DNA of 64,000 bases from Candidatus Dojkabacteria bacterium (GCA_030583685.1 CP129470.1:212345-276344); one strand, 5' to 3'; shown: positions 1-14,153, numbered from the stretch's first letter. Numbers and translations: made by a program. Notes: generated by a model from the letters alone, not told the origin.

Positions 1-435
1 CGATTTCAGCGTGACGGGATTAATGCCAATTTTTCCTAAAAATTCATCAGGTAAAACATCTTGTTCGGGATTAAACGTAAAAACAATGTCATCTTTTAAG
101 TGAAAACTCGTCGGGAAAAAATCAACTAATTCTAAGGTTGAGTAGGGGATTGCCGCACAATGATACTCAGTGACATCATTTTCCTTTTGAACAGTTTTAT
201 GCAAGACGCAAAAAGGGATTATAATTCTAGTTGTGGAATCATCAACTTGCTCCTGCTTCATTTTGAATACGCCCTCTGCAACGACAGGAAGTGCTACTGA
301 GGAATCAACTTTCCATGTATTATTATCGTCCCAGGCAATCTGAGCTTCTCTCATAATCCATACCAATCCTCCGAGAAAAAGCGCAACAATAAGAGTAATG
401 AGTGAGATACCAACTACTTTCTTCTTCACCTGCAT
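1..435 (-). CDS. hypothetical membrane-anchored protein, truncated by window edge (145 aa visible, N-terminal TM helix)
   Basis: ATG at 433-435 (minus); reading frame open to position 1 with no stop (MQVKKKVVGISLITLIVALFLGGLVWIM...); absent from supplied ORF track because it runs off the edge; 40 bp downstream of the sortase gene on the same strand. Confidence 0.5.
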   Translation of the reverse strand, partial: MQVKKKVVGISLITLIVALFLGGLVWIMREAQIAWDDNNTWKVDSSVALPVVAEGVFKMKQEQVDDSTTRIIIPFCVLHKTVQKENDVTEYHCAAIPYSTLELVDFFPTSFHLKDDIVFTFNPEQDVLPDEFLGKIGINPVTLKS

Positions 436-475: not shown

Positions 476-1186
476 CTATTGAATTCTCTGAGCGTACACG
501 ACAATCCTGACCGGCGACTTCAAATGCTTACAGGTGTACAAAATAATATCTGCATTGTAATCCGTAAGTTGTGTGTTTTCTTCTACTTTGTACACCTTGT
601 ACACATACGCTCGTTGCTCCCAAATCAACTGAAACGTATCGCCTTCTTTTAAATTAGGAAGGTTCGCGAATGTATTCGTTTTACGAAATGCAGAAGACCA
701 TTCTATATACCCATACCGATGGGCAGCAAGAATAATCGGAGAGTCATTTCGGAGGGGAGTTCCGAACTCAGGAACTCGCCAAATTCCATTATAGAGAGCT
801 CTCTTTGAGTCGTTTCCTTCTTGAAGGATACCATTGACGCCAATTTTGGGAATTTTCAAGGTATTCTCGCGAGGAAGAGATGCATCAAATTGAGGAAGTG
901 CCAAACGAGGTTTTTCAGTCGGTGTTGGGGTTGGGGTAAAACCAATTGGTGTAGGCGTTGTCGTTAGACTAGGGGTTGGACCAATAACGGCACCAATACC
1001 AATAAACCCTGTTAAAGTATCAACTTCATCTGATGTTGCTTCGACATTAATTCGATAATATACCCACGGGAGTGCTGGAATCAGTAATAAAATGGTGCCT
1101 GCTGTTATCAACAAAAAACCCACATACGATAAAATAAAGGAAATATCTTTTAAGGTTCGTTGTTTTCTGTCAACTGCAAACTCCAT
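476..1186 (-). CDS. sortase-family transpeptidase (N-terminal TM anchor, Pro/Thr-rich linker, catalytic domain)
   Basis: Catalytic His in IILAAHRYGY, Cys in ILYTCKH (TLxTC-like), Arg in SPVRIVVY about 10 aa later; N-terminal hydrophobic anchor; TPSLTTTPTPIGFTPTPTPTEKP linker. Confidence 0.78.
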   Translation of the reverse strand: MEFAVDRKQRTLKDISFILSYVGFLLITAGTILLLIPALPWVYYRINVEATSDEVDTLTGFIGIGAVIGPTPSLTTTPTPIGFTPTPTPTEKPRLALPQFDASLPRENTLKIPKIGVNGILQEGNDSKRALYNGIWRVPEFGTPLRNDSPIILAAHRYGYIEWSSAFRKTNTFANLPNLKEGDTFQLIWEQRAYVYKVYKVEENTQLTDYNADIILYTCKHLKSPVRIVVYAQRIQ

Positions 1187-1232
1187 AGGTGATTATAAAG
1201 CTTTAACGCGATTAGAGCAATGAAAGCGTTAA
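1187..1232 (-). promoter_or_regulatory. conserved 45-bp promoter/operator element upstream of sortase gene (-10 TATAAT at 1192-1197 on minus, 5 nt before ATG; -35-like TTGCTC/TTGCTT)
   Basis: ATTATAaaGCTTTaAcGCGATTaGAGCAATgAAaGCGTTAA is near-identical to elements at 2201-2246 and 3195-3238; TATAAT-cacct-ATG geometry implies a leaderless transcript. Confidence 0.55.
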
Positions 1233-1291
1233 TGAGGTGTGAGCTTCACAAGAAGGTAAAGCACCGAAGCGATTAAAGCTTCAAACTTGCG

Positions 1292-2200
1292 TTACCGTTT
1301 TGTCTTCAGCATTCTTGCCCCCATGAACGAAACGACCCCGACGACGTACAACATTCCACCCATCCAGAGTAAGATATCATCTGCAAAACCAGTATCCGTT
1401 GGAGTATGTGTCACCGATGGTGTTCTATCGACAGAAGTTAGCGGTGGAGATGGAGTTCTTGTGAGTGGTTCAGTTGTTGTGACGGGAACAGTCGTTGTAA
1501 CAGGAACGGTTGTCGTTACAGGAACGGTTGTTGTCACCGCGATTGCTTTCATCGCCCAGAGCGCTGCAGCATCATTAAAGTCAGCATCAACTGGGTCGCT
1601 TCCTCGAGTATCAGCGAAACAGGCAGCGGCAGTATCTATCGTATTTTTTTGGCGTTGATTATAAAGAAAGAGAGTACTCCCCGATTCAGATAAGTCAGGA
1701 TGCACTTCCTGTCGAGAGGCATCATCGAGGTCTGAAATTGAAATGACCGCATAATGCCCCGTTAGGCAATTTTCACCACTACACGGACAGCCCGTTCCAC
1801 AGGTGCTACGGTGAGGACTCACATTACTTGGCATCCAGCGAGGAAATGCGGTCGTACACGTTCCCCCGGTACAAATATAAAATTCATAGCGGTAGGTCTG
1901 CTCGGTCGCAGTTGGTGGGCGAGTATCCCATAACGTACCTCCTTCATTCGAATTGCGAGTAATTGTTGCAATCACCGCTCCGCCTTGTTTTACCAGCACT
2001 CTTACTCTGTGCTGACTTTTAAAATAAAAGCGCAGCTCATGATTCGGACGAGACTTCACATCGACATAATGTCTGTTAATGTAATTTGATGAATTACAGC
2101 TCACATTGGCCTGAGCCAGGACAGGCTTTTGGAATAACACAACATTCAGCAAGGAGAAGGCAATAATAAATGCAGAGAGAGTAATATTTCGTATAACCAT
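1292..2200 (-). CDS. secreted Cys-rich surface protein with VTTTVP repeats and C-terminal sorting domain (putative sortase substrate), paralog A
   Basis: N-terminal signal peptide (…VVLFQKPVLAQA); about 12 Cys in mature region; (VTTTVP)x3-4; C-terminus HTPTDTGFADDILLWMGGMLYVVGVVSFMGARMLKTKR = motif + hydrophobic helix + basic tail; adjacent sortase. Confidence 0.75.
   Translation of the reverse strand: MVIRNITLSAFIIAFSLLNVVLFQKPVLAQANVSCNSSNYINRHYVDVKSRPNHELRFYFKSQHRVRVLVKQGGAVIATITRNSNEGGTLWDTRPPTATEQTYRYEFYICTGGTCTTAFPRWMPSNVSPHRSTCGTGCPCSGENCLTGHYAVISISDLDDASRQEVHPDLSESGSTLFLYNQRQKNTIDTAAACFADTRGSDPVDADFNDAAALWAMKAIAVTTTVPVTTTVPVTTTVPVTTTEPLTRTPSPPLTSVDRTPSVTHTPTDTGFADDILLWMGGMLYVVGVVSFMGARMLKTKR
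1472..1537 (-). repeat. tandem 18-bp repeat (about 3.7 units) encoding VTTTVP linker
   Basis: gtgacgggaacagtcgtt / gtaacaggaacggttgtc / gttacaggaacggttgtt seen directly; generates the spurious antisense ORFs 1287..1658 and 2398..2607 in the ORF track. Confidence 0.7.
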
Positions 2201-2246
2201 AGGGTATTATAATGCTTTCACGCGATTGAAGCAATAAAAGCGTTAA
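2201..2246 (-). promoter_or_regulatory. conserved promoter/operator element upstream of paralog A (-10 TATAAT at 2206-2211 on minus, 5 nt before ATG)
   Basis: ATTATAatGCTTTcAcGCGATTgaAGCAATaAAaGCGTTAA; quasi-palindrome GCTTtCA-cgcgat-TGAAGC lies in the -35/spacer region. Confidence 0.55.
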
Positions 2247-2285
2247 GAACACGGCATTCTAGTTTTACTCCGCTTCAAACCTGCT

Positions 2286-3194
2286 TTATCGCTTCACCTT
2301 TAGTATTCTTGCCCCCATAAAGGAAACAACACCAACAACGTACAGAATTCCGCCCATCCATAACAATATATCATCTGCAAAACCAGTATCCGTTGGGGTG
2401 TGGGTCACTGATGGCGTTCGATCAACCGAAGTCAATGGCGGAGAAGGAGTTCTTGTTAATGGTTCAGTCGTCGTTACAGGGACAGTTGTCGTGACAGGAA
2501 CGGTTGTCGTAACCGGAGGAGATGTCGGGACTGTTTCTGCTTTTACTGACCAAACTGTTGCAAAATCATTAAAATCATCGTCTGCCGTACCTGCTTCTTC
2601 AGGTTGATCATTCCAACACACTAATGAAGTATCGCGGCCAACAGTTCGTTGTGCAGGAAGAAACAAACTATACCCACTGGTATTCAAATTATACAGTTGA
2701 TACTCGTTTGTTGTCGCACTATTTAATAATCCTTCATGGTTGATGAGTACAAAATGGTTGCCTTCAATAGGGCAACCTGTGCCACACTTTTTATCATGTG
2801 GTGCAACATTACTGGGCACCCAGCGGGGGACTAAGTCGCAATTTGTAAAGCCAGCATCATAACAACTAAAAAGGCGATATCGATAGGTGGTTTCCGTTGC
2901 TTGTGCTGGTCGCGTATCAATGAGCACGCTAGCACCATTAAACACATTTTTATTGACCGTTTGTATGACGGACCCATTTCGAGAGATCTCAACTTTCAAG
3001 TATGTATCTGCGCTCGCGTACATGCGGACAGAATGATTCGCAGGTGCTTTTATGTCAATAAACGATTGATTCTTGTAGTATGCTGCATTACAACTGACGT
3101 TCGCTTGGGCCATGACAGGCTTTTGCATGAGTACTGCATTCACAAAGGTAATTGCAATCACAAAGCTAGAGAGAATAATAGTTCGTATAACCAT
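2286..3194 (-). CDS. secreted Cys-rich surface protein with VTTTVP repeats and C-terminal sorting domain, paralog B (start trimmed to Met25 of track ORF 2286..3266)
   Basis: Start at 3192-3194 gives the same 302-aa length as paralog A and places ATG 6 nt after the conserved TATAAT; C-terminus HTPTDTGFADDILLWMGGILYVVGVVSFMGARILKVKR is nearly identical to paralog A; the N-terminal halves have diverged. Confidence 0.72.
   Translation of the reverse strand: MVIRTIILSSFVIAITFVNAVLMQKPVMAQANVSCNAAYYKNQSFIDIKAPANHSVRMYASADTYLKVEISRNGSVIQTVNKNVFNGASVLIDTRPAQATETTYRYRLFSCYDAGFTNCDLVPRWVPSNVAPHDKKCGTGCPIEGNHFVLINHEGLLNSATTNEYQLYNLNTSGYSLFLPAQRTVGRDTSLVCWNDQPEEAGTADDDFNDFATVWSVKAETVPTSPPVTTTVPVTTTVPVTTTEPLTRTPSPPLTSVDRTPSVTHTPTDTGFADDILLWMGGILYVVGVVSFMGARILKVKR
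2465..2514 (-). repeat. tandem 18-bp repeat encoding VTTTVP linker (paralog B copy)
   Basis: gtcgtcgttacagggacagttgtcgtgacaggaacggttgtcgtaacc. Confidence 0.6.
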
Positions 3195-3238
3195 AAGATG
3201 ATTATAGTGCTTTAAAGCGATTGAAGCAATTAATAAAC
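3195..3238 (-). promoter_or_regulatory. conserved promoter/operator element upstream of paralog B (-10 TATAAT at 3201-3206 on minus, 6 nt before ATG)
   Basis: ATTATAgtGCTTTaAaGCGATTgaAGCAATtAA aligns with the other two copies. Confidence 0.5.
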
Positions 3239-3343
3239 AGAGCAGATTAAGAGTGAATTGTAACAATATTGGATAGAAATGTCAATACTATAGGCCAACC
3301 AGCATTGTTTTGTTGTACCCTCGTAACACCGCCTTCTTATCAT

Positions 3344-3371
3344 TGACAGTGCCCTTGTCTTATAGTATAAT
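3344..3371 (+). promoter_or_regulatory. sigma70-type promoter: TTGACA (3344-3349), 16 bp spacer, TATAAT (3366-3371), ATG at 3377, implying a leaderless mRNA
   Basis: Perfect consensus hexamers read directly; only 5 nt between -10 and start codon; no Shine-Dalgarno. Confidence 0.6.
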
Positions 3372-3376
3372 ACTCC

Positions 3377-3604
3377 ATGAACAATACTACTGCTAAAAAA
3401 TTGGTTGTCGCATTATTCGTTTACATTACTTTTACAGGAGTAACTCTTGTACTTGCTGATGGAAACGGATCACCAAACCCCTACCATATACCCGTTGATA
3501 CGGGTATTAACTTTGACGCCAGCATACTTGCAGGTGCAGGGTTGTACGGAGTTGGTGTATTGATGACCAGTGGAGCGAAGGCTCTCAAAGCAAAACTTCA
3601 GTAA
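3377..3604 (+). CDS. 75-aa mini-protein: signal peptide, about 15-aa mature segment, then the same C-terminal sorting domain as the Cys-rich paralogs (putative minimal sortase substrate)
   Basis: MNNTTAKKLVVALFVYITFTGVTLVLA|DGNGSPNPYHIPVDTGINFDASILAGAGLYGVGVLMTSGAKALKAKLQ; H-I-P-V-D-T-G + hydrophobic helix + KALKAK tail aligns with HTPTDTGFADD…ARMLKTKR. Confidence 0.6.
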   Translation: MNNTTAKKLVVALFVYITFTGVTLVLADGNGSPNPYHIPVDTGINFDASILAGAGLYGVGVLMTSGAKALKAKLQ

Positions 3605-3625: not shown

Positions 3626-4384
3626 ATGAAGTTTTCGCTCATCATTCCAGCAAAAAACGAAGAAAAGCGAATTGTCTTGCCATTATTGGATTATTATAAT
3701 GCATTACAACAACGCTTTGGGAACGGTCAGTTTGAAATCATCATTGTCGTCAATAACACAACGGACCGAACTGTTTCGCTTCTTAAATCCCTCACTTCTA
3801 TTCTTCGCGCAAACGAAATCAAAATTTTTGATATCGGAAATGCGGAATCAAAAGGAAGGTCTGTTTTGTATGGACTCAAAAAAGCAAAAGGGGACATAGT
3901 CGGGTTTACAGACGCAGATGGATCGTATAAATCTCAAGAAGTACTCAAATTCTACAGAAAATTAGTCACTTCAGAGGCAGATGCAATTATTCCTAATCGC
4001 TATTCTAAAAAGAGCGTGTTTACTGGGCACTTACCCATCATGCGTAAAATCTACAGTAGGTTCTTTAATTTGCTCGTACGATTTTTACTTGGATTATCCC
4101 ATAAAGATACGCAAGGAGGATTGAAGCTGTTTAGAAAAACTGCGGTGAAAAAAGTCCTTCCTTCTGTTGCGACCTTCGGATGGACCTTTGATGTCAGTAT
4201 TTTACATCAATTCAAACTACATGATTACACTGTTAAAGAATCAGCAATTGAGTGGACACACTATGACGGAGGATCAGTAAATTTTGTAAATACTGCCAGC
4301 AACATCATCAGGGAGCTCTATTTGCTCACCGTTTCTCACTATACAAGAAAGGCTCCCCTTGAACTTTTGTCCTTAAAAAATTAA
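3626..4384 (+). CDS. GT2 glycosyltransferase (Dpm1/polyprenyl-phosphate sugar synthase-like)
   Basis: LIIPAKNEE…; FTDADGSY (DXD region); 252 aa. Confidence 0.8.
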   Translation: MKFSLIIPAKNEEKRIVLPLLDYYNALQQRFGNGQFEIIIVVNNTTDRTVSLLKSLTSILRANEIKIFDIGNAESKGRSVLYGLKKAKGDIVGFTDADGSYKSQEVLKFYRKLVTSEADAIIPNRYSKKSVFTGHLPIMRKIYSRFFNLLVRFLLGLSHKDTQGGLKLFRKTAVKKVLPSVATFGWTFDVSILHQFKLHDYTVKESAIEWTHYDGGSVNFVNTASNIIRELYLLTVSHYTRKAPLELLSLKN

Positions 4385-4396
4385 AATGCTCAAAAT

Positions 4397-5509
4397 ATGA
4401 GCAAATTTCTTTGGTTTTCCTGGAAAGACAAAACCCACCCTTTGGCTGGTGGAGCAGAGGTTATTAGCACAGAACTGCAGAAGGGACTCATTGCGCAAGG
4501 CCATGAAGTCACTCTCATTACAAGTATGTATTCCGGAGCTAGGAAAGAAGAGATTATCAATGGTATCACCGTAATCAGGCTTTCGGCACCACGTGTATTA
4601 TTGCCATTCATCAGCGTTCTTTACTATCTCACCAAATTACGAGGAAAAGCAGACTATCTCATTGAAGAAGTCAATACTGCACCATACTTGTTAAATTACT
4701 TCAAGAAAAAGGAGAGAGTGGCACTCTTATTTCATCAACTTGCTGAGGAAGTTTGGGATTATGAATTCTCATTTCCCTTTAACTTACTCGGAAGATACGT
4801 ACTTGAACCAACTGCACTGTATTTGAACAAAATATCTAAGAGAACCGTTGTTATGTCAGAAAGTACAAAGAAAGGATTGCTGAAATACGGTTATACTGAA
4901 TCGACTGTTGCAATAATTTCAGAAGCCACAGATTTACAAAAGTTACAACCAAATGAAACAATTAAAAAAGCTCAAGACTTTACGGTCACCTATTTTGGGA
5001 GCATGCGTCATATGAAAAGACCCGAAGAAGTTATCAAAGCGTTTGCATCTTCGTTGCGAGGAACGTCAGCCAAGTTACTACTGGCGGGAGGTGCTAATGA
5101 AAAGCGAGCAAAGGAATTACTTGAATTGGTCGATACTCTCGGTCTTTCAGAACAAACCACCTGGATGGGAAGAATTAGCGACCAAGAAAAGCGCGAACTT
5201 TTCAAAAAATCACATGTCGTTTGTATGACCAGCATTAAAGAAGGGTGGGGGATTGTCATTATGGAAGCGGCATTTTTTGAGGCTGCAGGAGTTGTGTACG
5301 ACGTTGACGGACTCAGAGAGGCAGTCATCGACAAAAAAACTGGCATTATCGTAAAAAGTAACACATTTGAAAAACTAGGAGAAGCCCTCAAATTCTTGTA
5401 CGAACACCCAGATATCTGTAAGAAGTTAGGGGAAAACGCGAGAGAATTCAATGAAAAGTTTTCATTTGAACGAACATGCGCTGAGTTTATTGCAAGTATT
5501 GAAAAATAA
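4397..5509 (+). CDS. GT4 (GT-B fold) glycosyltransferase
   Basis: N-terminal HPLAGGAEV motif; C-terminal EGWGIVIMEAAFFEAAGVV (E-x7-E-like). Confidence 0.78.
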   Translation: MSKFLWFSWKDKTHPLAGGAEVISTELQKGLIAQGHEVTLITSMYSGARKEEIINGITVIRLSAPRVLLPFISVLYYLTKLRGKADYLIEEVNTAPYLLNYFKKKERVALLFHQLAEEVWDYEFSFPFNLLGRYVLEPTALYLNKISKRTVVMSESTKKGLLKYGYTESTVAIISEATDLQKLQPNETIKKAQDFTVTYFGSMRHMKRPEEVIKAFASSLRGTSAKLLLAGGANEKRAKELLELVDTLGLSEQTTWMGRISDQEKRELFKKSHVVCMTSIKEGWGIVIMEAAFFEAAGVVYDVDGLREAVIDKKTGIIVKSNTFEKLGEALKFLYEHPDICKKLGENAREFNEKFSFERTCAEFIASIEK

Positions 5510-7191
5510 TGAACACGTTATTATTTGTCGTAAAAAGTTTTATAACTTCACACTGGGGCAAACTTGTGGTTTTACTTGGGTGCGTCACTATACTCTTGAG
5601 CAACGTTGATTCGACAAAAACCATCATGGGGCTAGACAACGCCTCACCATGGTTCGGAATGACATATGTGTATAACCTCATCGAGGAAGCTGAATCTTTC
5701 GTCGAATTTGGACCAATCGTGTTCTCCCCGTTACTCCACATTGCATATGTGTTTACTGCTCAGGCATCACTCATTTCACAATTCGTTTACTGGGGCAATT
5801 TCTTCCTTGGGATTCTCGGTATTTTGTACTTATTCAATCGCACAATCAAGCTCGAGCATAATCTATTGAGTATCTCAGGGTTTATCCTGATTATCGCGCA
5901 TTTGTCGACAATTTGGATGTTTTCTCAACCGACTTTTCTGTTCACTCACGCGTTTGCAGGAATTCCTTGGTTAATTGTTCTTTTCCTTGGCCGAGATCGA
6001 CAGAATCAATTCTGGCTACTCCCCACAATTCTTGGCCTCTTTTCATTCTTGCCCACATATCTTAACCCTGTCGCATTTACGACATATTTTATATGTTCGC
6101 TGCTCCTTGCATACTTTTTGAAACAGGAAATGACCATCAAGAATATTTTGAGGAAAGGATTAATCGTAGGAGTAGCATTATTGCTATGTATTCAGGTAAC
6201 CATGCTTCTTACGGGAAAAGCAACAACAGTCTGGCATGATTTGCATACATACACACAATCTCAACTTGAGAACCAAGAAAACTTGCTCGCTTCAGAAGGG
6301 CTCCGCGCAAGTGAAATTGAACACAACTCCTTTACTAATGTTATGCGATTTGTAACAGGCTGGATTGAACTCAACGACCTTGACTCGCAAAGTTTATTTG
6401 TCCACACCGAGTTATACCAAAAGAATATTATCTTCATTGTTATTCAGCTTGCTCCGATTGTATTCATTATCTGGTGGTACTACCTGAAAAGACGAGGTAC
6501 TGCAAAACAGCGGCAGTTACTCACAACCTTTTTTATAACTGTCGTTCTTTGTTCCTCGTATTTCCTTATTTGGATTGGAAGAATTCCGTACCTGAGCGAT
6601 GCATGGCGATGGCCAACCAGTAAAGTGTGGCCACTGTTAACGTTGCCCGTGTGGTATCTCTTCTTGTCTGCAATGAGGGAACTTCCCGCAAAGGTGAAAA
6701 CTCGTGCAATTCTAATTTTTACCCTTGCAGCTTCACTTCTCACCTTCCCCTGGTTTTCTTCATTGAACAATTATCGCGACAGAGTTGATTACTTTGCTGC
6801 TTCAGAGGGAATAATGTCGCCCTATGTCAGTCATACTGTGCCACAAGAATATTTGCAGCTTCAAACACTTTCGAAGGAGGATACGATACTCGCTCTCGAT
6901 AAACCACAAAAAGGGTTTTATCGCTACTATCCTTGGGGATACTACGGCACCGATTTTCTGTCATTTCTCACGAAGGCAACAATCATTGACGGAACGAGAA
7001 CGAATGCTGTCAACCAGGACTATATGCAGTATCTACAGTATCCAAACAGCTGGAAAAGTGCGACCATAACGCATCTTCTTGTTAATAAGAATACTGAAGC
7101 ACTATCTCAAGATTTAGAAATTCTGCGACAAGTATACGACGTACTCCTCGATAACCAATACTTTACTTTATTGAAAATTACGTATGATTAG
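5509..7191 (+). CDS. polytopic membrane protein (560 aa, more than 12 TM), putative GT-C-type glycosyltransferase/polymerase
   Basis: Multiple hydrophobic helices plus C-terminal soluble region; start overlaps upstream stop (TAATG); within glycosylation cluster. Confidence 0.45.
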   Translation: MNTLLFVVKSFITSHWGKLVVLLGCVTILLSNVDSTKTIMGLDNASPWFGMTYVYNLIEEAESFVEFGPIVFSPLLHIAYVFTAQASLISQFVYWGNFFLGILGILYLFNRTIKLEHNLLSISGFILIIAHLSTIWMFSQPTFLFTHAFAGIPWLIVLFLGRDRQNQFWLLPTILGLFSFLPTYLNPVAFTTYFICSLLLAYFLKQEMTIKNILRKGLIVGVALLLCIQVTMLLTGKATTVWHDLHTYTQSQLENQENLLASEGLRASEIEHNSFTNVMRFVTGWIELNDLDSQSLFVHTELYQKNIIFIVIQLAPIVFIIWWYYLKRRGTAKQRQLLTTFFITVVLCSSYFLIWIGRIPYLSDAWRWPTSKVWPLLTLPVWYLFLSAMRELPAKVKTRAILIFTLAASLLTFPWFSSLNNYRDRVDYFAASEGIMSPYVSHTVPQEYLQLQTLSKEDTILALDKPQKGFYRYYPWGYYGTDFLSFLTKATIIDGTRTNAVNQDYMQYLQYPNSWKSATITHLLVNKNTEALSQDLEILRQVYDVLLDNQYFTLLKITYD

Positions 7192-7999
7192 CATTGTTGT
7201 TTCGACAAAAAATGAAGAAGAAAATATCGGTAGATTGATTGAGTCGCTCAAAGCACAAACATACCAGAATTTTGAATTCATTTGTGTCGACAACTTCAGT
7301 ACAGACAGAACTACTGAAATTGTCAAGCAATATGGGTATGACGTTATCAGTAAAGGTCCTGAACGTTCGGTACAACGAAATGAGGGAATTAAAAGAGCAA
7401 AAGGGGAGTGGATTTTGTGGCTTGATTGCGATATGTCACTCTTGCCTGAGACACTCGAAACCTGCGTAAAACTGGCATCAGAGCACAGTTACGATTACTT
7501 GACGATACAAGAAAAAATTCCAGAAGTTTCGCTGTTTGCCAAAATGCGTAATTTCGAAAACAAGCTCCTCCTCAAAACAGTTATTTCCGTCCCTCGGTTT
7601 ATCAAAAGTTCACTTTTCAAGGAAATTAACGGATTCGACGAATCAATGACTGGGGCAGAAGATTGGGATATGGCAAAACGGCTTTCCCAACTTTCGCCAC
7701 GTAAGGGAATTCTGTATGTTTCAGAGACACGCGGCATCATTCATCATGAAGAATCAGTTTCTTACAGGCGCTTTCTCGAGAAGAAAAAGTATTACACCGC
7801 AGGTTGTATTTTGTACGAGAGGAAATGGGGCTCACGAGACCAAGATGTTCGCAGACAACTCCATGCTATTCCACGGCTCTGGCATATTGTTTCTGCACCA
7901 GGGAACCTTCAAACAATACTGTCACGTCCAGTTCTCTTTCTCTATCTTCTTTTGGTAAAAGCGCTGCCATCTTTGTTCACGTATAAAACCAGCCAGTAA
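7184..7999 (+). CDS. GT2 glycosyltransferase
   Basis: MISIVVSTKNEEENIGRLIESLKAQTYQNFEFICVDNFSTDRT…WLDCDM. Confidence 0.8.
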   Translation: MISIVVSTKNEEENIGRLIESLKAQTYQNFEFICVDNFSTDRTTEIVKQYGYDVISKGPERSVQRNEGIKRAKGEWILWLDCDMSLLPETLETCVKLASEHSYDYLTIQEKIPEVSLFAKMRNFENKLLLKTVISVPRFIKSSLFKEINGFDESMTGAEDWDMAKRLSQLSPRKGILYVSETRGIIHHEESVSYRRFLEKKKYYTAGCILYERKWGSRDQDVRRQLHAIPRLWHIVSAPGNLQTILSRPVLFLYLLLVKALPSLFTYKTSQ

Positions 8000-10827
8000 C
8001 CTCCGAGTAGAAGCGGTGCAATCAGCGTAAATAACCGAACGTACCCAATGACTGTTGCGTCAAGATAATCAATTTCTATAGTCACGTTGCCTTCCGGTAA
8101 CAAAAACGCTTGCATAAATCCGTACGCTCTCACGCTTTCTAGCTCCACTCGTTCTCCCAATGATAGTTGGGCACTCGCTCGCCAACCTGGATCATATAAC
8201 TCACTCACAAGTAACACGTCGCCACGTTCATATTGCTGAACACCACCTGTAAAGCGAACAGGGGAGTGCCGCGTTAAGGAAATGTAGCTTCTATCTGATT
8301 TCGCTTGGATTGCAGAGGGAACAAACACGACAACTCCTGTTTGCAGCTCAATTTTGTCTTCTGTGGTTACCCATAGTTCCTCAGTTGAAAGACACGATAC
8401 TTGCTCTTGGTTTACCATGACCACTGCATCACGACAGAGTATTCGAAATTCTCCAGCAGGAAGGTGTAGTTCGCTTTCTTGTGCATACGATACCAACATT
8501 ATGGTATCACTTTCGATCTCTTGAGTTAAACGATCGACCTCATCTTCAGCAATCAACACAATTTCTTGAACGGCAGCGAAACCTTTTTTGTTTTGGACTG
8601 AAACTGAAATATTCTGAGTTACTTCATCAACAGACAGAATTCCAATACGTACCCAAGAAAAATGTGGGATTACCGATGCCGTTGAAACGCGTGTTGTTGC
8701 AGTATCAAAAACAAATTTAAGTTCATCGGACTTTGGTGAAAAGAATACACGAGCAAGTGCGACATAGGCACCTTTGCGTTCAGGAAGAGGAAGCGAAATC
8801 TCCATCGTTGCATCCTCCGCATAAGTAAATGCCGTCCCTCGGAACTTATCTGTCTGGTATGACGGAATCTCGAATTCTTGGAGATAATAAATAAACGGTT
8901 CCTGTACTAATTGAGCAGTTGTTCCCTTTGACCATATTTTTTCTGGAAGATGTCTATCCAGGCTTTCATAAACAGACGAAACTGTTGCCTGACAGCTCTG
9001 CTGTAAGCGGCAGTCGGAAACGATCATATCATAGGGAACTTCAGAGAGTTCTCGTATGCGCGTAGTGGACTGCACCGGTTGATCTACTGGAATAAACGAA
9101 AAGTTATTTTCACTTAATACATCCCAAACTCGAGGATCTTCAACGACATCGTACATGGTTTGTTGCACACGAGCATTAATTCCATCTTCAAGAAGCGCCG
9201 TCTTTCGAAGCAGAGAAGTATTGTCTGCAAACGTTGTTCCTCTTGTTGTTATTTGTGGTGGTTGTGCGCCAAAAATATCGTAGCGAGCGATGATGTGATT
9301 AATTAACAAATCTTTTGCGAGTTCACGAGAGTGTGATTCTTTTTCTAAATAGTTCGTCATCGGAAGGGTGACTGAACTTGAATTTCCATACCGATTGCCG
9401 ATACTTTTTGTTACCATGTCTGGCGTTTTACCAAAGTCCCACGATAATCGAGGTAACCCATACAGTTCAGGCCTTTCCGTAGGGGACAACCACAAAACTT
9501 TGCTATACTCCCCAATTTCTGTCTGTAACTCTGCATACTGTCGTGGAAAAATTACCGGCGAAAATGACTTCCACAGCAAAGAGAAGGAAAAATACGAAAA
9601 TACCAAAAAAAGCACACCGATTAATGGAATAAAACGACGAGATGCCAGTCCAACAAAAGACTTTTCTGAAAAAGTAGAGAAACTCACTGACCACACAAGA
9701 ACATACAGAATTGGTAACAGCAATAAAATCCTTGCCCATTCACGAAACACCAAAAACCCTCCCAGAATTCCTACTGAAGATGCCCACTCAACACCAGCAC
9801 GAACAATTTCATTATTCATGCCAGAACCAAGGATAAGAACAATTGCCGCAAACACGCTTAACGCAACAAGAAACCACACATCCCTCCAAGATTTGGTCAG
9901 AAGTGCACGTATCAGCAACACAACCAGAGAAACACCAGCAAAAATGGTAATCACTACTGCAATCGCTTGATAATACTGCATATCAGACATATCGGTCATG
10001 TACCACCAGTTGTTGGTAAAGGTCAGTGAATTTTCAACACTCCCATTCCGCGAGAGTAACTCAAACATTGAGATATTTGCAGGAATTGGATACTGCGAAG
10101 AAGGAAAGAGTAATGAGAGGAATATTTGAATATTCAAGACGAGGTAGCCAAGCGCACCAGAGAGAAGAAAACTGACCGCATTTTTTATTGACTTCCGCGC
10201 AACAAATAACGACAACAATCCAATCAACAATGCACCATATACCAACCCGTGAGGAAAGACAAAAAATTGACTAAATACTAAGGCAAGTGCAATGAGAGAA
10301 TGCTTTCTACCAAACTTCGCATAATCAAAAGCGAGCGATGCCAAATACGGAGTTACCAGATACCCAAACCAGATATAGATATGTATGACACGCCCAACGG
10401 CATAGAAATTCAGGAAGTAGAAAAGGAGTAGTGCGGCTACTGCAGTTGCACCCAATGGTGATTGTAATTCTTGACGAAATAATTTGTAAAAACCAAAAAC
10501 ACCAAGACTTAATGCAATTGCAGTCATTACCGACCACACCCACGACTCAGTTGCACCAAGAAGACTTGCTGCGAGAAAGAGAACACCCGGCAGCGATGCA
10601 TAGCGAAAATATTCTAACGAAAATGAAGACCCCGCGCTGTCATACGGAAAAAGAATTTTTTGAAAGGCTAAATCTCCTGATTTTGGACCAATCAAGGCAC
10701 TTAAATCGGCAAAGGAAAAGGTGAGAGAAGGCGCAAGAACAGGAAGTAAAATCATAATATGCGCCAGAAAAACAAGCGCGACTGCAACAAGAAAAATATA
10801 TAATGAAAACAACGGAAAGCGTTTCAT
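7942..10827 (-). CDS. YfhO-like GT-C membrane glycosyltransferase (962 aa; N-terminal about 13 TM, large C-terminal extracytoplasmic domain); start trimmed to MKRFPLFSLYIF
   Basis: Architecture typical of YfhO/ArnT-like enzymes that use polyprenyl-P-sugar donors; internal ATG at 10825-10827 avoids a 63-aa non-hydrophobic leader and clears the neighbouring gene. Confidence 0.5.
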   Translation of the reverse strand: MKRFPLFSLYIFLVAVALVFLAHIMILLPVLAPSLTFSFADLSALIGPKSGDLAFQKILFPYDSAGSSFSLEYFRYASLPGVLFLAASLLGATESWVWSVMTAIALSLGVFGFYKLFRQELQSPLGATAVAALLLFYFLNFYAVGRVIHIYIWFGYLVTPYLASLAFDYAKFGRKHSLIALALVFSQFFVFPHGLVYGALLIGLLSLFVARKSIKNAVSFLLSGALGYLVLNIQIFLSLLFPSSQYPIPANISMFELLSRNGSVENSLTFTNNWWYMTDMSDMQYYQAIAVVITIFAGVSLVVLLIRALLTKSWRDVWFLVALSVFAAIVLILGSGMNNEIVRAGVEWASSVGILGGFLVFREWARILLLLPILYVLVWSVSFSTFSEKSFVGLASRRFIPLIGVLFLVFSYFSFSLLWKSFSPVIFPRQYAELQTEIGEYSKVLWLSPTERPELYGLPRLSWDFGKTPDMVTKSIGNRYGNSSSVTLPMTNYLEKESHSRELAKDLLINHIIARYDIFGAQPPQITTRGTTFADNTSLLRKTALLEDGINARVQQTMYDVVEDPRVWDVLSENNFSFIPVDQPVQSTTRIRELSEVPYDMIVSDCRLQQSCQATVSSVYESLDRHLPEKIWSKGTTAQLVQEPFIYYLQEFEIPSYQTDKFRGTAFTYAEDATMEISLPLPERKGAYVALARVFFSPKSDELKFVFDTATTRVSTASVIPHFSWVRIGILSVDEVTQNISVSVQNKKGFAAVQEIVLIAEDEVDRLTQEIESDTIMLVSYAQESELHLPAGEFRILCRDAVVMVNQEQVSCLSTEELWVTTEDKIELQTGVVVFVPSAIQAKSDRSYISLTRHSPVRFTGGVQQYERGDVLLVSELYDPGWRASAQLSLGERVELESVRAYGFMQAFLLPEGNVTIEIDYLDATVIGYVRLFTLIAPLLLGGYWLVLYVNKDGSAFTKRR

Positions 10828-10928
10828 ATGATAGTGTAGTGAGTTTTTGGGAGAGAGTAAAGAGGAAAAAAGGTACTGCGGCTTCACAAAGTTCTTATGG
10901 GGTTTGTGAAGCCGAGCACGGCAAGATG

Positions 10929-11753
10929 TTACGGCGTAGGCACCTCCTGCAGGGCGAAGGAACAATTGGTTGGGTGGAAAATCTCCATGTTGTTCACTCC
11001 GGCATTCAGGTACCATACCTCCGCGAATTTCACATCCTGACCATTGATAGTCCCCTTGAAATCAAGATCACCTCGGAGAGGTGTGGTGGTTTCAATGGTC
11101 AAGGGACCGCACAAGCCAGGGAGATCCGTCTCGTGGAATTCTGTTCGACCATAAAGGTCTCCCTGCCACAGAATCGTTCCCGACGCCTCATGAGTTATCA
11201 CAACCCAGGCGATTGACGAAACTTCGACATCCTGATAGTACGTGAAAGGCGTGATGTCTTGTAGCGCGAACGCGCACTCGCCCTTCGGATGGCTCACGGA
11301 CAAGGTATTCCAGCCTTCAACGAGATACCACGCTTCCGCAAACTTTACGGATTCGCGATTAACATCGCCGGAGAAGTCAAGATCCCCTTTGAGCTCCTTC
11401 GTTGTGTAAACCCTCATTTCCCCGCTGCATATCGTCGGATAATCCGCGACGTGGAATTCCATCCTCCCAGTTAAGTCACCATCGACGATGGTGTCATTCT
11501 GGAAGTCCACGATCCTTACATATGCGGACCACGGCACCAGCGTCGCGGCTTCGGCAGCTTCGGCTTCGGGCGTCGCAGCTTCGGATTCGGGCGTCGCCGT
11601 GGTTTCGTCGGCTTCGGGCGCGGCAGTTTCGGTCGGCATCGCCGTCGGTTGCGCCTCATCAGCGGATGAGGTGGTGGTTACACGCATGGCAACAAACACC
11701 AGCGCAGCGACGATAATCGACGCTCCACCAATTTCAACGAACTTTTTAAACAT
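10929..11753 (-). CDS. secreted/anchored protein with acidic Ala/Glu/Pro/Thr linker and two internal about 90-aa Cys-containing repeats; compositionally foreign (GC-rich)
   Basis: N-terminal hydrophobic segment; ATPESEAATPEAEAAEAAT linker; repeat GDL.G..EFH..D.P..C…GDLDF.G…VKFAE.WYL…HP..C.FALQ twice; DNA at 11521-11700 is above 60% GC versus about 40% background; strong GGAGG Shine-Dalgarno 7 nt upstream. Confidence 0.6.
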   Translation of the reverse strand: MFKKFVEIGGASIIVAALVFVAMRVTTTSSADEAQPTAMPTETAAPEADETTATPESEAATPEAEAAEAATLVPWSAYVRIVDFQNDTIVDGDLTGRMEFHVADYPTICSGEMRVYTTKELKGDLDFSGDVNRESVKFAEAWYLVEGWNTLSVSHPKGECAFALQDITPFTYYQDVEVSSIAWVVITHEASGTILWQGDLYGRTEFHETDLPGLCGPLTIETTTPLRGDLDFKGTINGQDVKFAEVWYLNAGVNNMEIFHPTNCSFALQEVPTP

Positions 11754-11876
11754 GTTAGCCTCCTCAGCTAAAGAAAAAGGATGATACCTTGCATTCAGCC
11801 GTCACCAGGACGTACCAGGCTGAATGGTGCTAAATCTCGGGGTTCTCCCCAAAATCCAAGGACGATGGAAAACCCA

Positions 11877-11920
11877 TCTCACACACTCAACACCCCAAAA
11901 GAGTTGCTCAGTGTGTGAGA
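11877..11920. other. stable hairpin (11-bp perfect stem tctcacacact/agtgtgtgaga, 22-nt loop with extra internal pairing) in a 552-bp non-coding region
   Basis: Read directly; no adjacent U-tract; sits in the 3' UTR of 12306..14153 and in the 5' region of 10929..11753. Confidence 0.4.
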
Positions 11921-12305
11921 CAGAAGTCCATTCCCTCACCATTCATTACCATTTATCCGTAAATCTTTGCCGTTTGCTTGAATGATGTTTTCGGAGAGAC
12001 TGCACTCGAAAGTACAATTTCATCCTGAAACGTTCAAGCAGTTGTTAACGAACTGGAAGCTTTCGCTTCCCACGTGTTCCGGAGCTTTCGCATCTCAGAA
12101 CAGACAAACCACCAAAAATTTTGGTCGCATGGCTGTTCGGAGAAATTTCTTATAGTACGGGGTCAGATCTGGAATACATCATTCTTTTCTCCGAGGGCGT
12201 CCCCATTAATAAAGAGCAGTGGGGAATTATAACAAGTCCCATAGTCTTTGTCAAGGCCGCAAACCCGACTCTCATACTCCCCTTCGGGTGTTGTTATGTA
12301 ACTTT

Positions 12306-14153
12306 TTACGCCGCAGCTGGACCTGTCAAACGGAATATTTTTGCAAGAACTGGGTTATCGCGAAGGTCCCGTTGAGAAAGCTTGAAACGAGCCTTCTGCG
12401 TTTGAGCTTTCGATGCTTTTTGGAATTCAGGATGATTAATGAAATTCTTCAATATTCTCGTGAAATCTGATAATCGTACGTTTTCATCTCGTAGCAGAGC
12501 AGGATTTTCTACAAGATTCCAAATATATTGTGGATTCGCGGCAAACGCTACATTGTCTGTTTCCCACATATGCAAATAAGGTGGATCAAAAGCTAAATCA
12601 TCCGCAACCGTTGCAACAAAAACCATAGGATAAGCTTTATAAACTGTTCTGAAACATTCAATATACTCTGCAAACTCTTCTTGTCTTTTTTTTGTTACCA
12701 CATCAGGCATAGGAATTGGTGTGCCAAAATGAATTAAATCCCAATACTGTCGAGTGATTTCTTTTTCTGTTCTCACAGCATCTTGAACTGCCGCAACATC
12801 GCCCACGTTCTCTCCTTCCGCAGGAGTAGGGGATTCAAGAGTTGGCTGTACCGTTTCACTTCCGCCTTCTTCAACCACAGAATCCCCCCGGTCAGAGGGA
12901 TCTTCGGTCACTTCTTCAAGAAGTGTTGCTGATTGAATTTCTGTTTCAAATATGTGTCGTTCTGCTGCGCGATGGCTATGAAAATGCTCCATTTTATGCA
13001 AAAAATCTTCTCGAGAAAGTGGCTTATCTCTAAGTGCAGAAAAAAACTGCACAGCAAGATGTGTCATTTTTTCATCCCAATTTATGCTATCAGGGAACAT
13101 AATTGCTTTTGAAATTGCATCTGCCACAACTTCAATTGAAGCACCTTCAAAATATTGTTGATATTGCCAAAGAAGATCCCCGTCAAGCTCGACCATTCCT
13201 GATTGCATTTGTTCGAAAAGATATTTTCCAATACGGTAACACACAGATTTGTTATACGTTATTTCATTGTAGCTACTCACCTGTTGTTCTCGCATCATAA
13301 TCTCTAAGATGCCGAGAAACACACCGTAACCTGTCGTATTGATCCCTTCAAGATTAGGGTCTTGTCTAAATTGCTCCACCACCGTTCTCCCTATGTTCTT
13401 CCGAAATGACGGAATGTGATACATTGTTTCAGAATTGAAGAACAAATTGGGCAACTCAGTTGTTCGTTTCATAACTTGATTAACTGTTGCTGTAACCTCA
13501 AATAGCTTGTCTAATGGCAATACCGTTTCTGGAAACATGAGTCTGTAGTCACCGGCATGAACGCCTTCATGTACCATAACAAATCGCGCCCACTGACTAT
13601 TTGGATCGCCGTTCGATTCAACTGTTAACATTCTCTCATTAGGATCAAAAATTCCCGCAGCTAACAGATCTGTTGTATTAGAAATTGTCGATATAAAATA
13701 TCCAGCATTATTTCCAAAAAGAATTTGAACCAATTCAGCAGTTGAAATTGCATATGATTCCTTGTGAGGATCAAAATCGTACTTGGGATAGCTAGGTCCG
13801 TCCCAGTGAATATGCTGGGCGACATCGAGATCTTCCATAAACCTCTCTGGTAACGTTGTCAACTGCAAAGCCCTTCTCGCTTCAAGAATTTCGTACAGAT
13901 GATAATACTGTCGCGGAGTAAGTTCCTTGTCCCGTACATCACGAATCGCAATTATTTCATCTGGAAATATCCTACTGAGTGCAGAAGCAATAGGCACACC
14001 CAAAGCAAGCCCAACGGGAATACCAATCATACACCCAAGAATCAGTCGTCGTATTGCACCCGCATCTTGAGATTGATCGTAGTGGTTTTTTCCCTCGGTT
14101 TTGCTACCTCTCTTTGCCTGAGGTTCTTGTACTTGGTTTCTACGTCCCATCAT
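12306..14153 (-). CDS. large hypothetical protein (615 aa) with N-terminal TM helix and HExxH motif (putative zinc metallopeptidase-like)
   Basis: LILGCMIGIPVGLALGVPIASAL hydrophobic segment; VMVHEGVHAGDY; no other recognisable motif. Confidence 0.5.
   Translation of the reverse strand: MMGRRNQVQEPQAKRGSKTEGKNHYDQSQDAGAIRRLILGCMIGIPVGLALGVPIASALSRIFPDEIIAIRDVRDKELTPRQYYHLYEILEARRALQLTTLPERFMEDLDVAQHIHWDGPSYPKYDFDPHKESYAISTAELVQILFGNNAGYFISTISNTTDLLAAGIFDPNERMLTVESNGDPNSQWARFVMVHEGVHAGDYRLMFPETVLPLDKLFEVTATVNQVMKRTTELPNLFFNSETMYHIPSFRKNIGRTVVEQFRQDPNLEGINTTGYGVFLGILEIMMREQQVSSYNEITYNKSVCYRIGKYLFEQMQSGMVELDGDLLWQYQQYFEGASIEVVADAISKAIMFPDSINWDEKMTHLAVQFFSALRDKPLSREDFLHKMEHFHSHRAAERHIFETEIQSATLLEEVTEDPSDRGDSVVEEGGSETVQPTLESPTPAEGENVGDVAAVQDAVRTEKEITRQYWDLIHFGTPIPMPDVVTKKRQEEFAEYIECFRTVYKAYPMVFVATVADDLAFDPPYLHMWETDNVAFAANPQYIWNLVENPALLRDENVRLSDFTRILKNFINHPEFQKASKAQTQKARFKLSQRDLRDNPVLAKIFRLTGPAAA

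Follow-up and report, generated by a model that had tools for sequence, protein, structure and literature searches.

The locus lies in a window of 64 kb (the whole stretch of DNA analysed) out of the ~0.89-Mb genome of a Candidatus Dojkabacteria bacterium (CPR). It comprises, on the minus strand, a sortase gene and two genes encoding 302-aa paralogs (A and B) and, on the plus strand, the gene of a 75-aa mini-protein. A sequence-only reading had proposed a sortase locus with three substrates carrying non-LPXTG tripartite C-termini, one of them a mini-substrate; when the window was translated, all four ORFs were present and they, with their C-termini, matched that description exactly. The membrane protein said to be cut off at the window edge is likewise there, as the first part of a 519-aa protein whose N-terminus carries a membrane anchor. 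This protein gave no match in a Pfam search and has no recognisable domain; it is given only as context to the sortase system. The features are as follows.

1-435, minus strand: 5' part of the gene downstream of the sortase (N-terminus of the 519-aa protein)
476-1186, minus strand: sortase gene, 236 aa
506-508, minus strand: catalytic Arg227, codon checked, SP[IV]R context
530-532, minus strand: catalytic Cys219, codon checked, LYTC context (TLxTC-like)
719-721, minus strand: catalytic His156, codon checked, AAHR context
1192-1220, minus strand: 29-bp promoter-like element TTGCTCTAATCGCGTTAAAGCTTTATAAT, copy 1, TATAAT ending 5 nt before the sortase ATG
1292-2200, minus strand: paralog A, 302 aa
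1295-1408, minus strand: sorting module of paralog A, H265-T-P-T-D-T-G, spacer FADD, transmembrane helix, tail KTKR
2206-2234, minus strand: 29-bp element, copy 2, ending 5 nt before the paralog A ATG
2286-3194, minus strand: paralog B, 302 aa from ATG 3194, the ORF being readable back to TTG 3266
2289-2402, minus strand: sorting module of paralog B, HTPTDTGFADD, transmembrane helix, tail KVKR
3201-3229, minus strand: 29-bp element, copy 3, ending 6 nt before the paralog B ATG
3285-3257, minus strand: second sigma-70-like site near paralog B, TTGACA-17-TACAAT
3343-3371, plus strand: sigma-70 consensus of the mini-protein gene, TTGACA, 17 nt, TATAAT (12/12 matches), ending 5 nt before the ATG
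3377-3604, plus strand: putative mini-substrate gene, 75 aa
3377-3457, plus strand: signal peptide of the mini-protein, residues 1-27
3458-3502, plus strand: predicted mature peptide DGNGSPNPYHIPVDT, roughly 15 residues, Pro/Tyr/His-rich
3485-3601, plus strand: sorting signal of the mini-protein, H37 to Q75

The three copies of the 29-bp element (none expected by chance in the window) are all at the sortase locus. The third one, together with the alignment with paralog A and protein P0001, supports position 3194 as the start of paralog B; a mechanical ORF call gave 2286-3266 from the TTG, and the homologous ATG was preferred. For the mini-protein gene, the perfect consensus located 5 nt before the ATG suggests that the transcript is strongly expressed and probably leaderless. 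No peptidoglycan synthesis genes were found in the annotated part of the window; an envelope context is indicated in one related locus (L015) by a VanY D,D-carboxypeptidase near the sortase.

By its sequence, catalytic triad and modelled eight-stranded beta-barrel fold, the product of the sortase gene is a member of the sortase superfamily and a predicted transpeptidase. It matched the Pfam Sortase family (PF04203) over residues 110-234 with E=2.6e-12 (47.0 bits versus a gathering score of 26.6); a membrane helix at its N-terminus is joined through a disordered Pro/Thr linker (about 62-108) to the catalytic barrel, which is compact (109-236). H156, C219 and R227 were invariant among 32 homologues. 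The AF2 model had a pLDDT of 83.7 overall, above 90 over most of 109-236, with the N-terminal helix spanning 2-61; when it was compared with the PDB using Foldseek, the top 50 matches were all sortases (E about 1e-8), the best being class C and class A enzymes at about 20% identity. Against the NCBIfam class models the protein remained under every curated cut-off (24.3 versus 160 bits for class E, 19.8 versus 165 for class D, 19.2 versus 160 for class C and 24.2 versus 39.35 for TIGR01076) and there was no match at E<=1 to the class A, B and F models. Its best PDB sequence match was at E=2.9e-5. As judged from these scores, it is outside all curated class A-F models, which bears out the claim that it stands apart from the LPXTG-specific classes (19-24 bits against cut-offs of 160-165).

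The three proteins end alike: H-x-P-x-D-T-G is separated by a short acidic spacer from a transmembrane helix, after which comes a basic tail. The C-terminus of paralog A translates as HTPTDTGFADDILLWMGGMLYVVGVVSFMGARMLKTKR, that of paralog B has I in place of M at two positions and V in place of T at one, and that of the mini-protein is HIPVDTGINFDASILAGAGLYGVGVLMTSGAKALKAKLQ; the stretches spanning the motif are PYHIPVDTGINFD and SVTHTPTDTGFADD. A scan of the six frames of the whole window for a P-x-[DNEST]-T-G-like motif with a hydrophobic stretch and then a basic tail behind it returned the same three ORFs plus one non-matching short ORF. Within the window the motif is H-[TI]-P-[TV]-D-T-G, as had been read from the sequence (P-x-D-T-G with an upstream His), but this is not its general form: among relatives it becomes H-x-P-x-x-T-G, with D or E at P2 in the lineage of the window and P, N or Q elsewhere. 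A search for a sortase residue co-varying with the P2 residue found none.

The tripartite layout was seen in the three window proteins and in 97 relatives. Conservation in 70 mini-proteins was 65 for H, 67 for P, 65 for T, 58 for G and 51 for an acidic residue at P4'; in 27 large substrates it was 27/27 for H, T and G and 26/27 for P. With both groups pooled, T was conserved in 92/97 and G in 85/97, and it is on the conservation of these two residues that we infer cleavage between Thr and Gly and an amide linkage to peptidoglycan. The spacer between motif and helix measures 4-6 residues and contains a conserved Asp/Glu. In a census of the six-frame ORFs of 1.17 Mb of related loci (864,288 ORF residues), 60 of the 61 occurrences of H.P..TG were located 30-55 residues from the ORF C-terminus, a placement far beyond chance. 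The presence of the module on further proteins, which had been made a test of the system, was borne out in relatives, where about 70 mini-proteins and no fewer than 27 larger ones carry it. At least 22 unrelated larger proteins end in the module, including fn3-repeat, Cys-rich-repeat, BD-FAE esterase and lectin-like ones; it therefore behaves as a general sorting signal.

Co-occurrence with the sortase clade was also found. A strict scan placed a HxPxxTG-type substrate by the sortase in 63 of 80 related loci, 48 of them having it 0-205 bp downstream on the same strand, and relaxed scans brought the number to about 73/80. Of the seven loci without a substrate, six extend no more than about 800 bp beyond the sortase gene. 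Since adjacent genes are inherited together, this synteny can count only in part as independent support for an enzyme-substrate relation. In a close relative, L001, a large substrate is present and no mini-protein lies within 10 kb.

The mini-protein is identical to P0137, annotated 'hypothetical protein QY312_01165'. A mature peptide of roughly 15 residues had been taken as an unusual product; the size was upheld, but it is no oddity of one locus, as homologues adjoin the sortase in about 70 loci. Typically they are 70-100 aa long, are encoded 50-200 bp downstream of the sortase and have a mature part of about 14-35 residues, mostly made of the conserved motif PY-x-PH-x-P-x-x-T. Between strains, the mature peptide plus motif keeps 14/16 residues and the signal peptide 10/27. 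Of the roles suggested for the peptide, those of wall cap and decoy are hypothetical. A pilin role is made less likely by the lack of Lys in DGNGSPNPYHIPVDT and of any conserved Lys in the mature part of the 70 mini-proteins; a sortase-assembled pilin (class C substrate) was rejected for want of a pilin-motif Lys in the mature mini-peptide.

Paralog A consists of a signal peptide, probably cut after AQA30, a beta-sandwich lectin-like domain bearing CGTGC and D-x-D-F-N-D motifs, a Thr/Pro/Val linker and the sorting module; paralog B shares this architecture. They had been called Cys-rich, which holds modestly (8 Cys in A, 6 in B). Their N-domains are about 40-50% identical and their last 72 residues 96% identical. 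The near identity of linkers and sorting domains is thus real, but it does not reflect a recent copy: 36 of the last 72 codons differ synonymously and 3 non-synonymously (pS=0.62, dN=0.04), so that recent duplication or gene conversion was rejected, and the near-saturation of synonymous sites points to strong purifying selection. The N-domain gave no Pfam match and no PDB sequence match, and at sequence level it is no member of the LecB family. Its D-x-D-F-N-D-A stretch aligns to residues 96-108 of LecB, which hold the calcium-binding D-N-D-Y-N-D-A (LecB reference sequence checked against 1OUR/1GZT), and D207, N209 and D210 were invariant, F208 nearly so, in 13 homologues. In this calcium-binding stretch the domains resemble LecB-type calcium lectins, and the large paralogs are probably glycan-binding adhesins with a LecB-like putative calcium site. 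The PA-IIL/LecB lectins (1GZT) and thrombocorticin (7F91) are the closest known counterparts; compared with LecB, the paralog domain has about double the length, and it contains conserved Cys pairs as well as the CGTGC motif.

How does the system compare with known ones? As with housekeeping sortases (class A, class E of Actinobacteria, class F of Cutibacterium), we have a membrane-anchored Cys transpeptidase, here predicted, with a His-Cys-Arg triad, substrates combining an N-terminal signal peptide with a C-terminal motif, spacer, helix and basic tail, a conserved T-G dipeptide, and one enzyme for several unrelated surface proteins. Its catalytic domain is short in comparison (about 128 residues) and only about 20% identical to solved sortases. 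The known class motifs are LPXTG, (N/S/P)PXTG, LPXTA and LAXTG (PMC8225981, Table 1). The present motif lacks the L-P-x-T-G, LAxTG or NPxTG signature (Pro or Ala two before Thr): unlike in LPXTG/LAXTG signals, Pro is three before Thr (P4, not P3), an almost invariant His is at P6 and an acidic residue at P4'. The three window modules gave no match at E<=1 to LPXTG_anchor (TIGR01167) or Gram_pos_anchor (PF00746); the mini-protein of one relative exceeded the LPXTG_anchor cut-off (18.2 versus 15.9 bits) and five more reached 13-14 bits. Among the papers and the Pfam and NCBIfam models that the analysis turned up, none describes the motif or the mini-protein.

A non-LPXTG sortase adjoining its cognate substrate as a conserved unit recalls SrtB-IsdC (NPQTN) and the class D sortases of Bacillus. 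Known dedicated sortase substrates are folded domains, such as the NEAT domain of IsdC; unlike in SrtB-IsdC, the partner is here a 70-100-aa precursor leaving about 14-35 mature residues. Sortase substrates of about 100 residues are known in the EF2685/EF0750 family of Firmicutes (NF053819, model length 105), which uses LPXTG and has a mature part several times longer, as judged from the NCBIfam name and model length. A few mini-proteins matched this model weakly (E about 0.005) and in the signal-peptide region only; at 13-17 bits against a cut-off of 47, homology was rejected. A tripartite C-terminal domain on many unrelated proteins is also a property of exosortase, archaeosortase, rhombosortase and myxosortase signals (PEP-CTERM, PGF-CTERM, GlyGly-CTERM, MYXO-CTERM). 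Signals of this intramembrane-protease type have no motif-helix spacer and depend on multi-pass intramembrane enzymes for their cleavage, a spacer being typical of the sortase type (Haft, 10.1101/2023.06.07.544157). With a 4-6-residue spacer and a single-pass sortase as neighbour, such a system was ruled out.

The reading that we hold to be quite probable is sortase-mediated surface anchoring through a H-x-P-x-x-T-G signal instead of LPXTG. It builds on what was observed: the genes present, the catalytic triad and fold of the enzyme, the conserved motif, the synteny and the recurrence of the module on unrelated proteins. Which bond is cut and which acceptor is used are proposed by analogy, and what the mini-peptide does is likewise a proposal. 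The three precursors would be exported by Sec, lose their signal peptides and be retained in the membrane by the C-terminal helix and basic tail, the acidic spacer offering the motif to the extracytoplasmic sortase domain. Cys219, helped by His156 and Arg227, would attack the Thr-Gly bond, and a wall-precursor amine would resolve the acyl-enzyme, joining the Thr carboxyl to peptidoglycan. The products would be two wall-anchored beta-sandwich proteins on Thr/Pro stalks and the DGNGSPNPYHIPVDT peptide.

The fate of the mini-protein could differ. Its processing by the sortase might end in hydrolytic release, head-to-tail cyclisation, transfer to another acceptor (a protein N-terminus or a non-peptidoglycan polymer) or a wall-bound amine accepting other substrates, the pair being a dedicated peptide-maturation or adaptor system and the large proteins still ordinary anchored substrates. 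The two-gene unit is indeed kept throughout the clade, frequently where no further substrate is close by, the mature peptide is nearly all conserved motif with little 'cargo', and in the window its gene has the perfect promoter and heads a glycosyltransferase cluster (3626-7999); in Woesebacteria-type mini-proteins, moreover, two conserved Cys (C-x3-YGGGVVCG) hint at a small knot that is folded and possibly bioactive. We nevertheless find this unlikely: the large surface proteins bear the same signal, so that the same fate is the simplest reading, signal-peptidase cleavage is predicted to leave D/S/E-G... at the N-terminus and not a conserved Gly nucleophile, a conserved Lys is absent, and the neighbouring genes do not consistently include one for an exporter, immunity or a receptor.

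That the modules are plain membrane anchors, and the mini-protein an uncleaved two-helix hairpin that uses its conserved extracellular loop to bind the sortase or some other partner (e.g. as a regulatory pseudo-substrate or assembly factor), would suit a protein that is essentially two hydrophobic helices and a 15-residue joining loop, as well as modules that reach no curated sorting-signal model in the window and a cleavage argued by analogy. It is very improbable in our view, because a plain anchor would not require unrelated proteins to share an invariant H-x-P-x-x-T-G whose distance from the helix is fixed, and because T-G dipeptide, acidic spacer and basic tail follow the grammar of LPXTG signals, with one member above the LPXTG_anchor cut-off; conserved signal-peptidase-type A-x-A sites (VLA|DG, ALA|SG and similar) also precede the mature peptide. 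Slighter still is the chance that a genuine signal is cut by an enzyme encoded elsewhere (another sortase or an unrelated protease) while the adjacent sortase serves canonical substrates. The window shows 64 kb of the genome, and locus L039 has an LPKTG protein 6 kb from the sortase; this was the only canonical LPxTG protein in the 1.17 Mb of related loci, no second sortase or multi-pass sorting protease was recognised next to the motif-bearing genes, and these are tightly syntenic with the sortase clade.

To conclude, genomes of Dojkabacteria and of the Microgenomates group widely retain the mini-protein as the partner of this sortase clade, and the large substrates are lineage-specific additions reusing the same signal. 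The HxPxxTG system is a real and new variant of sortase sorting, in which, by analogy with known sortases, cleavage and attachment to the wall would take place.

All the ORFs named in the sequence-only reading of the locus, which had proposed a non-LPXTG sortase system with a mini-substrate, were present in the ORF listing:

476-1186, minus strand: sortase, 236 aa
1292-2200, minus strand: paralog A, a large putative substrate, 302 aa
2286-3194, minus strand: paralog B, the second large putative substrate, 302 aa from the ATG at 3194
3377-3604, plus strand: mini-protein, 75 aa, divergent from the paralogs

The start retained for paralog B agrees with paralog A and the homologues; the mechanical ORF reaches back to a TTG at 3266. 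Each of the three non-sortase proteins has a signal-peptide-like N-terminal segment. At the C-terminus the motif H-x-P-x-D-T-G is followed by a short acidic spacer, a hydrophobic run of about 20 residues and a tail of Lys/Arg; a six-frame scan found this arrangement confined to these three genes within the 64-kb window. At the window edge (1-435, minus strand), the truncated membrane protein noted earlier proved to be the first part of a protein of 519 aa, which has a membrane anchor at its N-terminus and no domain that could be recognised. In the same-species locus L081, which extends the window past coordinate 1, the stretch 10752-15694 holds this 519-aa membrane-anchored protein and an 1126-aa protein, on the sortase strand and downstream of it, both without Pfam match; the next gene codes for an AddA/UvrD-type helicase-nuclease. 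Two antisense ORFs overlapping the paralog linkers (1287-1658, plus strand, 123 aa, and 2398-2607, plus strand, 69 aa; VVVTGTVVVTG...) are almost certainly no genes: they are by-products of the ACN/GTN-rich coding of Thr/Val repeats.

The sortase matched Pfam PF04203 at 47 bits, and its His156 (AAHR), Cys219 (LYTC) and Arg227 were invariant among 32 aligned homologues. In its confident AlphaFold2 model (pLDDT 83.7), a helix at the N-terminus is joined by a disordered linker of Pro/Thr to a compact barrel (109-236). The top Foldseek matches in the PDB were all sortases with about 20% identity, mostly from class C and class A. A database protein identical to the window's carries the annotation 'sortase [Candidatus Dojkabacteria bacterium]', which places the window in a CPR (Patescibacteria) genome. 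The enzyme is nevertheless outside every curated class: the NCBIfam class C, D and E models gave 19-24 bits against cut-offs of 160-165, those of class A, B and F did not match it, and no PDB sortase was matched by its family profile at better than E=2.9e-5.

Relatives were collected by scanning the sortase alignment against one genome per GTDB species: 192 were confirmed and the best 80 loci, from Dojkabacteria, Woesebacteria, Chisholmbacteria and other Microgenomates-group genomes, were analysed. The association with a mini-substrate held: among these best 80 of 192, a strict scan (for an ORF of 70-130 aa, at most 3 kb from the sortase, in which an H-x-P-x-x-T-G-like motif is followed by helix and basic tail) found a mini-type ORF in 63 loci, 0-205 bp downstream of the sortase and on the same strand in 48 of them. 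Relaxed scans and tblastn revealed one in further loci (L004, L005, L009, L011, L012, L034, L041, L062 and L076); in L001 the only substrate was a large one, and in six of the remaining loci the sequence stops at most about 800 bp past the sortase gene. The closest relatives (L002-L005) keep the window layout: the sortase is immediately preceded by one or two genes for large substrates, upstream of which lies the mini-gene in divergent orientation.

Some peculiarities of these loci deserve mention. GTDB representative MAGs carrying the sortase and mini-protein cassette are often titled 'uncultured Gammaproteobacteria', 'Pseudomonadales' or 'Saccharibacteria' (e.g. L034, L041, L052, L054, L062, L063); these look like mislabelled bins, and several of the names are evidently wrong. 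The sole ORF with a canonical LPxTG tail in the 1.17 Mb of sortase neighbourhoods, a 186-aa protein (TLPKTGAELW...; L039, 16684-17244), lies 6 kb away from an HxPxxTG-type sortase and mini-protein pair. The complete Dojkabacteria genome CP129477.1 (L006) has tandem mini-genes (11331-11561 and 11787-12026) in which the motif is without His and ends in T-S, not T-G (SPYVDPEDTS, SPYITPEETS). A protein without Pfam match, about 900-1130 aa long, is encoded in Woesebacteria-type loci 1.5-3 kb downstream of the sortase; its conserved C-terminus (...VNSWANGW...FYWPQLLEWGG...) is followed by a helix:

L045, 12121-14880
L051, 12384-15113
L052, 7683-10742
L062, 5270-8317
L063, 12106-15501
L072, 12167-15220

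The peptides spanning the window sorting motifs are NPYHIPVDTGINFD and SVTHTPTDTGFADD, and the conservation of each position across the family is as follows.

Conservation of the sorting motif, numbered around the presumed Thr-Gly cut
P6, His: 65/70 mini-proteins; 27/27 large proteins
P4, Pro: 67/70 mini-proteins; 26/27 large proteins
P1, Thr: 65/70 mini-proteins; 27/27 large proteins
P1', Gly: 58/70 mini-proteins; 27/27 large proteins
P4': Asp in 51/70 mini-proteins; Asp or Glu in 26/27 large proteins

Position P3 was variable; P2 was Asp/Glu in the window's lineage and many others, and elsewhere Pro (H-K-P-L-P-T-G), Asn or Gln. No sortase column co-varied with P2 (D/E versus P) past a 75% threshold, the groups being confounded by phylogeny. 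The known sorting motifs are LPXTG, (N/S/P)PXTG, LPXTA and LAXTG (PMC8225981); in contrast to them, H-x-P-x-x-T-G has its Pro one residue farther from Thr and an extra His two residues upstream. As a control, H.P..TG was counted in six-frame ORFs of at least 45 aa over the 1.17 Mb of loci: 60 of its 61 occurrences were placed 30-55 residues from the ORF end. A hydrophilic spacer between motif and helix marks sortase-type signals as opposed to those cut by intramembrane enzymes (Haft preprint). The curated LPXTG_anchor cut-off was passed by the L039 mini-protein (18.2 versus 15.9 bits) and narrowly missed by five others, as fits a divergent relative of the LPXTG anchor; the window's own three modules did not match that model.

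Further carriers of the module were returned by an exhaustive HMMER search of 1.84 billion representative proteins. The 30 proteins obtained are no clean module census, because the query profile spanned the full length of the database proteins P0001 and P0002 (364 positions) and not the 38-residue module alone. The same C-terminal module, with the consensus ...T-H-x-P-x-[DE]-T-G-F-[AES]-[DE]-[DN]..L.Y.GG.LY..G...F..AR..., was found on at least 22 proteins, 190-574 aa long, whose N-terminal parts are unrelated. Among them are Cys-rich repeat proteins, a BD-FAE/carboxylesterase-type hydrolase (P0126) and members of the paralog family, some with fibronectin-III-like repeats (P0130) and some without. 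Sorting signals are characteristically reused on secreted proteins that have nothing else in common, and the module thus behaves as a general signal and not as a family trait.

The two paralogs had been described as diverged N-terminal domains on nearly identical linkers and sorting domains; they are indeed about 40-50% identical over the N-terminal 220 residues and identical at 69 of the last 72. Recent duplication or gene conversion as the origin of these identical C-termini is ruled out by the codons: the last 72 of A (1295-1510, minus strand) and B (2289-2504, minus strand) differ synonymously at 36 and non-synonymously at 3 (pS 0.62, dN 0.04), so that the identity is maintained by purifying selection. 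Unexpectedly, not only the sorting motif but also the Thr/Pro/Val linker is constrained, which is unusual for a stalk region. The sequence (R/x)-T-P-S-V-T-H-T-P-x-[DE]-T-G is found repeatedly across species, and recognition may therefore reach upstream of His; glycosylation sites or an extended recognition sequence are possible reasons for the linker constraint. In the family alignment CGT (134-136) is invariant, with G137 and C138 nearly so (CGTGC motif); C194, D197, D207, N209 and D210 are likewise invariant, with F208 nearly so (D-x-D-F-N-D motif). With moderate confidence only, we take paralogs A and B for probable adhesins, carried on Thr/Pro stalks, that bind glycans in a calcium-dependent manner. 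Searched with the family profile, the PDB gave no sequence match even at E<=10. The hhalign match to LecB was restricted to a 13-residue calcium-site motif, and the lectin reading therefore stays a hypothesis.

Cleavage of the window mini-protein by signal peptidase (between VLA and DG) and between Thr and Gly would yield the 15-residue product DGNGSPNPYHIPVDT. Elsewhere in Dojkabacteria the predicted mature peptides have 14-21 residues and are rich in P-Y-x-P repeats (e.g. DGYTPYGPHIPEDT, DGNPYGPYNPYEPHKPIPT). In Microgenomates-group mini-proteins the predicted mature part is of about 24-35 residues, and a conserved Cys pair, C-x3-YGGGVVCG, precedes the H-x-P-V-[EDN]-T-G motif (L016, L039, L041, L045, L051, L052, L067, L072 and L076, where the mini-ORF comes shortly after the sortase); the pair has the look of a small disulfide loop. 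When 5.8 billion proteins were searched with a profile, 80 mini-protein members came up; all bear the name 'hypothetical protein' and none contains a Pfam domain. NCBIfam scans of Dojkabacteria-type subsets gave noise-level matches only, as did the comparison with NF053819 (105 positions), the NCBIfam model for small enterococcal sortase-dependent proteins.

In the same-species loci L081 and L082 the sortase is 100% identical to the window's and the mini-protein only at 42 of 80 positions: mature peptide and motif are kept at 14/16, the signal peptide at 10/27 and the anchor at 18/32. Comparison of L081 7606-8901 and L082 5429-6724 with window 2286-3604 places a recombination breakpoint within the first ~60 codons of paralog B; paralog A is nearly identical, divergence starts in paralog B, and beyond the breakpoint the mini-gene (52% identity) and the glycosyltransferase cluster are a different version. 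The pilin or pilus-base role suggested for the mini-protein is unlikely: mature mini-peptides have neither a conserved Lys nor a conserved N-terminal Gly, which disfavours pilin-like polymerisation. We consider it possible, if rather improbable, that sortase and mini-protein form a dedicated system whose product is the peptide itself, Pro/Tyr/His-rich and short or, in Microgenomates, Cys-looped, serving as a wall-dense docking or adaptor element or being released or cyclised; if true, this would be a primary sortase function not described before.

The surroundings of the mini-gene and the paralogs contain the following elements:

3343-3371, plus strand: TTGACA-17-TATAAT, a perfect sigma-70 consensus, ending 5 nt before the mini-gene ATG
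1192-1220, 2206-2234 and 3201-3229, minus strand: 29-bp element TTGCTYNAATCGCNNNAAAGCNNTATAAT, exactly three copies in 64 kb
3626-4384, plus strand: GT2
4397-5509, plus strand: GT4
5509-7191, plus strand: multi-pass membrane protein, 560 aa
7184-7999, plus strand: second GT2

No Shine-Dalgarno sequence precedes the mini-protein start codon, and the arrangement implies a strong, probably leaderless transcript. Sortase, paralog A and paralog B each have a 29-bp copy that ends 5-6 nt ahead of the ATG, and among the loci the copies are confined to the same-species ones (L081-L083): the element may be a shared promoter or operator, and its positions suggest co-regulated, short-leader or leaderless transcripts. 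The tightly packed glycosyltransferase cluster (3626-7999, plus strand) follows the mini-gene after 21 bp; the two may belong to a single operon, which would link the mini-peptide with the synthesis of glycans. The window mini-peptide has an N-G-S sequon, absent from the L081 version. A VanY D,D-carboxypeptidase is encoded two genes upstream of the sortase in L015; in the window, Pfam annotation of about 30 other genes gave housekeeping and glycosyltransferase genes and no mur or PBP gene. Farther away, at 21129-24056 (plus strand), lies a gene for a protein of 975 aa, in which a trypsin-like peptidase domain takes up residues 590-720 and the remainder has none that could be recognised.

Taken as a whole, the comparative evidence supports the system proposed from the sequence: a sortase clade outside classes A-F which would read the variant signal H-x-P-x-x-T-G and has a conserved mini-substrate as partner. 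What we infer is which bond is cut, which acceptor is used and what the mini-peptide does for the cell. Neither in Pfam and NCBIfam (June 2026) nor in the literature that could be searched on CPR/Patescibacteria sortases and new sortase classes was a description of the motif or the mini-protein found; a 2026 preprint on CPR pili deals with donor-strand exchange, not sortase. Sortases are near-ubiquitous in Microgenomates-group CPR bacteria (PMC6744442). For protein ligation, a sortase whose motif has its Pro shifted and a His upstream could serve as an enzyme orthogonal to SrtA. To our knowledge, the proteins anchored by the Microgenomates-group enzymes and the signal they read have not been described so far. 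The conservation of the mini-substrate suggests a sortase function, the installing or maturing of a 14-35-residue peptide, of which we know no characterised counterpart. With a defined signal (H-x-P-x-x-T-G followed by spacer, helix and basic tail), one could predict which surface proteins these organisms, uncultured and probably episymbiotic, anchor to the wall, among them candidate host-binding lectins, fn3-repeat proteins and esterases.
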